Origin: Escherichia coli | GTDB lineage: Bacteria > Pseudomonadota > Gammaproteobacteria > Enterobacterales > Enterobacteriaceae | DNA: 64,000 nucleotides | Assembly (NCBI RefSeq): GCF_003334315.1 | Contig: NZ_QOWR01000018.1 | Strand: one strand, 5' to 3' | Part shown: positions 49,649-50,676 of the stretch, in pieces | Layout: the number at the start of each line of letters is the position of its first letter | How positions within the stretch are numbered: position 1 is the first letter of the stretch | Translations under genes and position numbers: made by a program | The notes under the pieces: model-generated | Seen by the model: only the letters and a program-made list of their open reading frames with translations | What the model was told of the DNA's origin: nothing | The model's database searches: none

Positions 49649-50182
49649 ATGAATGCTAATATCAAATACGGCCTGTCAGCAGCCGTTCTGGCGCTGATTG
49701 CTGCAGGCGCGTCTGCTCCTCAAATACTCGACCAGTTTCTGGACGAAAAAGAAGGTAACCACACAGCGGCATACCGCGATGGTTCCGGCATATGGACCAT
49801 CTGTCGGGGGGCCACGGTGGTGGATGGAAAACCCGTTTTTCCCGGTATGAAACTGTCGAAGGAAAAATGCGACCTGGTTAACGCCATTGAACGTGATAAG
49901 GCGCTGGCATGGGTGGAGCGCAATATAAAAGTTCCACTGACCGAGCCACAGAAAGCCGGTATCGCGTCATTCTGTCCCTATAACATTGGCCCTGGTAAGT
50001 GTTTTCCGTCGACGTTTTATAAGCGGCTTAATGCCGGTGATCGTAAAGGCGCATGCGAGGCGATTCGCTGGTGGATAAAGGACGGTGGACGTGATTGCCG
50101 CATTCGTTCAAATAATTGTTACGGTCAGGTTATTCGTCGTGACCAGGAGAGTGCATTAACCTGCTGGGGGATAGAACAGTGA
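49649..50182 (+). CDS. phage endolysin (lysozyme family, SAR-type N-terminus)
   Basis: Hydrophobic N-terminal segment ([16 protein letters not shown]) then lysozyme-like core; follows the holin. Confidence 0.8.
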
Positions 50183-50676
50183 ATCAGATATTCACGGTGA
50201 TTTTGCTCGTGTTGGTAGGATTTGTCGTAGGTAATATCTGGAGCGACAGAGGATGGCAAAAAAAATGGGCGGAGCGTGATGCTGCCGAATTATCTCAAGA
50301 GGTAAATGTCCAATTTGCTGCTCGAATAATTGAACAGGGGCGAACTATATCCCGAGATGAGGCTGTTAAAGATGCACAACAGAAAGCCGCTGAAATTTCT
50401 GCCAGGGCTGCTGATCTGTCTGATAGTGTTAACCAGCTGCGTGCCGAAGCAACAAAATATGCCATACGCCTTGACGCAGCGCAGCATACCGCAAATCTTG
50501 CCGCTGCCGTCAGAGGCAAAACAACCAAAGCCGCCGAAGGAATGCTCACCAACATGCTCGGAGATATTGCAGCAGAAGCTCAGCTTTATGCTGAAATTGC
50601 TGACAAACGCTATATCGCAGGAGTGACTTGTCAACGGATTTATGAATCTTTAAGAGATAAAAAATATCAGATGTAG
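50179..50676 (+). CDS. i-spanin (Rz-like)
   Basis: N-terminal TM helix, coiled-coil-rich periplasmic domain; overlaps the endolysin stop. Confidence 0.75.
50372..50626 (+). CDS. o-spanin (Rz1-like lipoprotein) embedded in the +1 frame of Rz
   Basis: [23 protein letters not shown] lipobox, Pro-rich mature region; entirely inside the Rz gene. Confidence 0.65.

Follow-up and report, generated by a model that had tools for sequence, protein, structure and literature searches.

The window analysed here is a stretch of 64,000 nucleotides (nt) from Escherichia coli (RefSeq assembly GCF_003334315.1, contig NZ_QOWR01000018.1) that carries a prophage lysis cassette. The last gene of this cassette is an Rz-like gene, hereafter Rz, and inside it, in another reading frame, lies a second, shorter open reading frame (ORF). 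The two were analysed as a candidate two-component spanin, of which the enclosing gene would encode the inner-membrane subunit (i-spanin) and the embedded ORF the outer-membrane subunit (o-spanin). The pair directly follows the genes for holin and endolysin, and the four lysis ORFs of the window are all intact. The positions of the genes and of their features are collected in Table 1.

Table 1. Genes and features of the lysis cassette in window coordinates (aa, amino acids; AF2, AlphaFold2 model).
Feature	Position	Strand	Remarks
Holin gene, essD/essQ type	48762..48977	+	71 aa; first gene of the lysis cassette; holin families PHROG 9876 (E 4.7e-37) and PHROG 20 (E 4.6e-33)
Endolysin gene, rrrQ-type lysozyme	49649..50182	+	177 aa; PHROG 7 endolysin, E 7.3e-61; annotated rrrQ
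i-spanin gene (Rz-like, rzpQ orthologue)	50179..50676	+	165 aa; GTG start
Rz N-terminal transmembrane segment	50188-50238	+	residues ~4-20; from hydropathy
Opposite-strand ORF	50290-50634	-	114 aa; antisense to Rz
Opposite-strand ORF	50295-50555	-	86 aa; antisense to Rz
Shine-Dalgarno GAGG of the embedded gene	50359..50362	+	9 nt upstream of ATG 50372; read from the sequence
o-spanin gene (rzoQ orthologue)	50372..50626	+	84 aa + stop; +1 frame, fully within the i-spanin gene
Signal peptide of the o-spanin	50372..50437	+	22 residues; n-region with R4, K5 and K8, uncharged hydrophobic h-region; rule-based check
Lipobox L20-T21-S22-C23	50429..50440	+	Cys23 (50438-50440), predicted lipidated first residue of the mature protein
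Proline-rich linker of the o-spanin	50441..50554	+	residues 24-61; contains the invariant PQ.LPLPS motif and Cys58
C-terminal helix of the o-spanin	50555..50620	+	residues 62-83; begins at invariant Cys62; AF2
Sole conserved Cys of Rz, C151	50629-50631	+	invariant in 8 homologues

Position and start codon of the embedded ORF

The original prediction, made from the sequence, had claimed an ORF of 84 codons in the +1 frame that lies entirely inside the Rz-like gene, and both its extent and its placement were borne out. The surrounding +1-frame open stretch covers positions 50330-50626; reading from its ATG at 50372 yields exactly 84 codons before the stop codon. The ORF is offset by 193 nt from the start of Rz and belongs to the +1 frame because (50372-50179) mod 3 = 1. 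Its stop lies 50 nt before that of Rz, and the ORF is therefore fully embedded. Relative to the length L of Rz, it extends from 0.39 L to 0.90 L, and embedded o-spanins typically start at 0.4-0.5 L and end at 0.9-1 L (Kongari et al., 2018, PMC6139136). An o-spanin ORF placed wholly inside the i-spanin ORF in an alternative frame is what was found here; the features by which embedded two-component spanins were recognized were taken from Summer et al. (2007) and Kongari et al. (2018, PMC6139136).

Two upstream starts, ATG 50357 (89 aa) and TTG 50330 (98 aa), were considered and rejected. In five homologues the +1 frame opens one codon before the ATG that corresponds to 50372, and neither of the upstream codons is therefore a conserved start. 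The placement of the GAGG motif suits the start at 50372 as well and counts against the upstream starts; SpaninDB marks an identical GAGG, likewise spaced by 9 nt, for the o-spanin of phage N15.

Identity with RzoQ and relation to the N15 spanins

The predicted product of the embedded ORF is 94% identical (79 of 84 residues, E 6e-56) to RzoQ (b4689) of E. coli K-12. In the MG1655 record rzoQ ('putative lipoprotein RzoQ', 84 aa) is annotated inside rzpQ (b1553) at the same offsets, and the K-12 protein is entered in UniProt and NCBI as 'Putative lipoprotein RzoQ / Rz1-like lipoprotein, Qin prophage'. Judged by this similarity, the embedded ORF is E. coli rzoQ, which is already known, and forms one half of an ordinary spanin pair. 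Five substitutions separate the two proteins, of which four are located in the n-region of the signal peptide or just after the lipobox Cys and one near the C-terminus. The LTSC lipobox, the length of 84 aa, the 498-nt Rz gene and the offsets of 193 and 50 nt are shared by the window and RzoQ/RzpQ of the K-12 Qin prophage, as are rrrQ upstream and cspI downstream. In contrast to K-12 Qin, the window has a truncated ydfR-like gene and an opposite-strand ORF between holin and endolysin, and by reference-strain annotation its prophage has more of its genes than K-12 Qin.

The o-spanin also matched PHROG 11621 'Rz-like spanin' (E 2.9e-8), and homology to this RzoQ/N15-type family was found over the full length. 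A comparison with annotated spanin sets gave a match to phage N15, in which gp55 contains an embedded, formerly unannotated o-spanin (SpaninDB N15_EIS and N15_EOS; Kongari et al., 2018, PMC6139136). The N15 o-spanin is homologous to that of the window (65% identity over residues 22-84, E 5e-25), and the N15 Rz protein is 55% identical. Both o-spanins are 84 aa long, with a signal of 22 aa and a mature part of 62 aa, are embedded in the +1 frame and are partly helical; the o-spanins each have two periplasmic Cys and the i-spanins one, and GAGG is found 9 nt upstream of the embedded start in each. N15 differs in its Rz protein of 181 aa, which has a longer N-terminus ahead of the transmembrane segment, and in its lipobox (LVSC, compared with LTSC in the window). 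N15 was listed as a 'singleton' family in the 2018 spanin survey (PMC6139136), and the homologues gathered here show a predicted N15 spanin family that is broader than a singleton. With the identity to RzoQ, the N15 homologue in SpaninDB and the match to PHROG 11621, the proposed two-component embedded architecture is supported.

It had further been remarked that the o-spanin is longer than the approximately 60 aa of lambda Rz1. The length of 84 aa is correct, but it is not unusual: it is invariant in the family and lies within the range of SpaninDB, which contains embedded and overlapped o-spanins of 87-106 aa (N4, 87 aa; E1, 88 aa; MmP1, 92 aa; ENT90, 106 aa). The 84 aa are the family norm and not an anomaly.

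Rz genes 99.2-99.8% identical were found in the sequenced phages PhiR63_1, 2H10, HannyBb and mEp460_ev081, and therefore the spanin pair occurs in phage genomes besides chromosomal prophages. The 1.1-kb stretch of lysozyme and Rz genes is present in 3,922 of 5,426 complete E. coli genomes, with rrrQ and rzpQ as its annotated genes.

Conservation of the embedded reading frame

The length of the ORF was not accepted as evidence that it is a gene. Both strands of Rz are rich in long open frames, and in 20,000 synonymous-codon shuffles of the gene a +1 ORF of at least 84 codons appeared in 2.1%. The window itself has two antisense ORFs over Rz (Table 1) and, in the +2 frame at ~50474-50593, an Arg-rich open stretch of ~40 codons, and all homologues show long alternative-frame open stretches. 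The antisense ORFs were rejected as genes, as their open lengths vary from 55 to 176 codons across the homologues. Since such alternative-frame stretches recur with widely varying lengths, they are regarded as compositional by-products. A +1 ORF with a lipoprotein-like start was obtained in just 0.24% of the shuffles.

Conservation and codon-position diversity were used in place of ORF length. Homologous loci were collected from the K-12 Qin prophage, and from the phages N15, SW-37, F1055, MStein-2023a, Eeyore, ST846-OXA48phi9.1, phiNP, C130_2, Kc259 and Tritos. The alignment comprised the window and ten of these loci; Tritos, one residue different from K-12, was left out. The resulting 11 sequences derive from phages and prophages of Escherichia, Salmonella, Klebsiella, Citrobacter, Enterobacter and Kosakonia, and for nine of the loci the DNA identity to the window is only 69-77%. 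The embedded +1 ORF was found at every locus collected. It has exactly 84 codons in all 11 aligned sequences, with a protein identity to the window of 51-94%, and 26 alignment columns are invariant, among them Cys23, the PQ.LPLPS motif and the cysteines C58 and C62 of the C.PTC motif.

The overlap has also left a trace in Rz. The pairwise diversity at Rz third codon positions is 0.50 before the overlap and 0.61 after it, and 0.21 in the part that overlaps the mature o-spanin, where first and second positions have diversities of 0.22 and 0.15. A third position of Rz in the overlap is at once a second position of the embedded frame. The synonymous sites of Rz are thus suppressed ~2.5-fold, and this suppression is confined to the overlap. 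This drop of third-position diversity within the overlap shows that selection acts on both reading frames, and that it is purifying. In addition, tblastn matched 29 phage records, and in each of them the embedded ORF was found under an Rz-like/DUF2514 gene (mislabelled in one record), in none of them free-standing.

Lipoprotein signal and predicted structure of the o-spanin

The lipoprotein signal was analysed with a PROSITE PS51257-type rule, which asks for K or R in the first 7 residues, six uncharged residues, a lipobox and a Cys between positions 15 and 35. The o-spanin passed this rule, which points to a signal for signal peptidase II, and Cys23 is invariant in the 11 aligned sequences; the lipoprotein signal with an LTSC lipobox in the original prediction was thereby upheld. 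In the AF2 model, which was built on the 11-sequence alignment, the signal-peptide region forms a helix at residues 10-22. The mature protein would start at Cys23, followed by VPKQQ. The residue at position +2 is Val in the window and S, A, V, G or T in the homologues, with Asp in none. Since it is Val and not Asp, the o-spanin is expected to be sorted to the outer membrane.

The mature part contains 9 Pro in 62 residues (14.5%). The proline-rich character proposed for it applies to the first 40 residues, which hold all nine (22.5%), but not to the last 22, which are free of Pro and predicted to be helical. The proline-rich linker is probably extended: residues 23-61 show a single turn of 3 residues in the model and are otherwise irregular, with block means of the predicted local distance difference test (pLDDT) of 52-74. 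For the C-terminal helix, block-mean pLDDT reaches 92-95 over residues 61-80. In the secondary-structure table of SpaninDB 21 of 62 residues of the N15 o-spanin are helical, in agreement with this model.

The enclosing i-spanin gene

Rz is 90% identical to K-12 RzpQ and matched Pfam DUF2514 (PF10721) over practically the full length of the model (positions 4-160 of 161, E 4.3e-38), as well as PHROG 312 'Rz-like spanin' (E 4.6e-58). Its start overlaps the stop of the endolysin gene, with the TGA and the GTG sharing the sequence GTGA. The Kyte-Doolittle maximum of 2.7 was obtained for a window of 17 residues starting at residue 4. The AF2 model of Rz consists of two helices, 3-114 and 117-164, with a break near residues 115-116. 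An N-terminal transmembrane domain followed by a mostly helical periplasmic domain, the layout of an i-spanin, was thus found, with the periplasmic helicity read from a model of low confidence; the N15 homologue is listed with 79% helix in SpaninDB. The periplasmic cysteines of both proteins, C151 of Rz and C58 and C62 of the o-spanin, are invariant among the homologues. A search of PDB sequences with Rz returned a single match at chance level (E 0.86).

Interpretation as a spanin pair and comparison with lambda

The region is very probably the last gene pair, that of rzpQ/rzoQ-type spanins, of the holin-endolysin-spanin cassette of a Qin-type lambdoid prophage, with the function assigned by analogy. 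Several points weigh against this interpretation. BLASTP against the lambda proteins gave E = 1.1 for Rz1 and 1.7 for Rz, so that sequence similarity was undetectable. Pfam returned no family for the o-spanin even at E <= 10, Rz1 included, and neither spanin was matched by any NCBIfam model. The lipoprotein signal was judged solely by the PS51257-type rule, the model of Rz has a low confidence (pLDDT 52), and no functional work on rzoQ, rzpQ or DUF2514 spanins was found in the searchable literature, in which rzpQ came up in gene lists.

The designation 'Rz1-like' in the original prediction is accordingly apt for the architecture and, by analogy, for the function, but not for the sequence. The pair falls outside the lambda Rz1/Rz family, and Rz hits DUF2514 alone; as judged from these searches, the o-spanin of the window is a predicted functional analogue of lambda Rz1 and not a member of its family. 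The likeness lies in the layout. In both systems the i-spanin gene closes the S-R-Rz cassette and contains the complete o-spanin gene in its +1 frame, and in both the i-spanin has an N-terminal transmembrane domain followed by a periplasmic domain that is helical. Both o-spanins are small Pro-rich outer-membrane lipoproteins with periplasmic Cys, as predicted for that of the window. Lambda Rz1 has 60 aa, of which 40 form a mature part that is predicted to be unstructured and contains one periplasmic Cys. The window o-spanin differs from it in its mature part of 62 aa, a confidently predicted C-terminal helix of 22 residues and the C.PTC cysteine pair.

Because similarity to lambda Rz/Rz1 is lacking, the mechanism is carried over by analogy, and the following steps are drawn from the lambda Rz/Rz1 paradigm as summarised in PMC6139136. 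Signal peptidase II would cleave the o-spanin precursor before Cys23, which would be lipidated, and the lipidated protein would be transferred to the outer membrane in a Lol-dependent manner. Its C-terminal part would then bind the C-terminal helical region of the inner-membrane Rz protein, and the resulting complex would bridge the periplasm. Homotypic disulfide links are probably made through the conserved cysteines (C151 of Rz; C58 and C62 of the o-spanin). After the endolysin has cleared away the peptidoglycan mesh, such complexes would fuse or disrupt the inner and outer membranes as the last step of lysis.

The DNA of the o-spanin C-terminal helix (50555-50620) also codes for Rz residues ~126-148. 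As this DNA thereby encodes the distal helix of Rz as well, the interface partners could be helices derived from the same nucleotides. Whether the N15/Qin-type spanin represents in this way a mechanistic variant of the lambda type, with interface helices from the same nucleotides read in two frames and arranged in a helical bundle, is a tentative idea that we consider rather doubtful.

Alternative explanations

Among the alternatives, the one with most to say for it is that the gene is genuine but an inert relic of a decaying prophage in this strain, unexpressed and useless to cell or phage. K-12 Qin is a cryptic prophage, and related strains carry insertion sequences (IS) within the cassette and in its surroundings; in strain 13P460A, for example, rzpQ is split by an IS3. 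Moreover, unrelated genes are located between Q and the holin gene, and one opposite-strand gene between holin and endolysin. These signs of decay contrast with the intact lysis ORFs of the window, with the presence of genes that match int, xis, cI/cro-like genes, O, Q, terminase, portal and capsid by reference strains, and with the near-identical spanin genes of sequenced phages. An inert relic is therefore unlikely, and it would bear on activity in this strain and not on the nature of the gene.

A second possibility is that the embedded gene encodes a lipoprotein with a role other than that of a spanin, for example in surface exclusion or serum resistance, like Cor, Llp or Bor. Lambdoid prophages do encode small lipoproteins near their lysis genes, with bor just after lambda Rz, and the function of the RzoQ/N15 family is inferred only. 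However, the ORF is embedded in Rz at 11 of 11 loci and lies under an Rz-like/DUF2514 gene in each of the 29 phage records, its position at 0.39-0.90 L fits the typical layout of embedded o-spanins (Kongari et al., 2018), and the cassette would otherwise be left without an o-spanin or a unimolecular spanin. We regard a non-spanin role as highly improbable. Least credible is that the +1 frame of this Ala/Gln/Glu-rich gene for a helical protein is open by chance and encodes nothing, to which we give next to no weight: other long open frames do occur in Rz, but the constant length at diverged loci, the invariant columns with the lipobox Cys, the suppressed synonymous sites and the rarity of lipoprotein-like starts among the shuffles leave this explanation effectively refuted by conservation.

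Annotation of the embedded gene

Automated annotation usually overlooks embedded rzoQ, and this is the practical point of the analysis. Over the lysozyme and Rz stretch the Prokaryotic Genome Annotation Pipeline (PGAP) gives only rrrQ and rzpQ in the 15 RefSeq E. coli genomes listed, and rzoQ is likewise absent from the two RefSeq feature tables inspected. The exact o-spanin sequence of the window is present in NCBI solely as 'hypothetical protein'. Among the 29 phage records, only that of Eeyore has a separate coding sequence for the embedded ORF, labelled with the generic 'Rz-like spanin', and in this record the true Rz gene is broken up into fragments called 'hypothetical protein'. Since pipelines miss rzoQ, counts of lysis genes or lipoproteins from such annotation are too low. 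Beyond correct annotation the significance is small, with rzoQ curated in K-12 and the family represented in a published spanin database.

The 90%-identity cluster that holds K-12 RzoQ (84 aa) also contains many lysozymes of 177 aa, which are unrelated in sequence. This looks like a clustering artefact, possibly caused by fused or mis-called ORFs.

Lysis cassette and prophage context

The holin is named essD by PGAP in strains that are identical over the searched stretches. The N-terminus of the endolysin is weakly hydrophobic and Ala/Gly-rich, which suggests an enzyme of the signal-arrest-release (SAR) type. Between these two genes, at 48982-49521, two further genes are located. One is a DUF1327 (ydfR-like) gene of 72 aa, compared with 103 aa in K-12; the other is an opposite-strand ORF of 98 aa (49225-49521) that matched PHROG 25324 (function unknown; E 6.8e-61), beside which a terminator-like hairpin lies at 49200-49219. 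As K-12 Qin has ydfR alone at this place, the lysis cassette seems to have received an insertion here, by which ydfR was truncated.

Upstream of the cassette the prophage carries int, xis, exo, dicB/DicF, cI/cro-like genes, O, hokD/sok, rem, ydfU and the Q antiterminator gene, and downstream of the spanins terminase, portal and capsid genes; these names come from the annotation of reference strains whose aligned stretches are identical or near-identical to the window, and they speak for the presence of the genes, not for intact ORFs in the window. Between the Q antiterminator gene and the holin gene (45775-48571), where K-12 Qin has cspB and cspF, three genes that are not phage-like were found, encoding a Blc-like lipocalin (minus strand), a YbgA-family protein and a 240-aa AraC-type helix-turn-helix regulator (47849-48571). 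Strain 13P460A has an otherwise identical prophage, in which IS3 is inserted ~120 nt into rzpQ, upstream of the rzoQ start, so that the embedded ORF is intact.

Downstream of the spanins, cspI is preceded by an Rfam cspA thermoregulator match at 50882-51298 (+, 109.8 bits) that covers its leader and its start. Two further RNAs typical of Qin-type prophages were found, namely the antisense small RNA DicF at 37581-37632 (-, 72.5 bits), adjoining dicB/ydfD, and the sok antitoxin RNA of the hokD locus at 43036-43210 (+, 99.9 bits). Positions 1-32474 are ordinary E. coli chromosome near the replication terminus (tus, rstAB, pntAB, ynfEFGH, dmsD, rspAB), and the prophage is integrated just after rspB.

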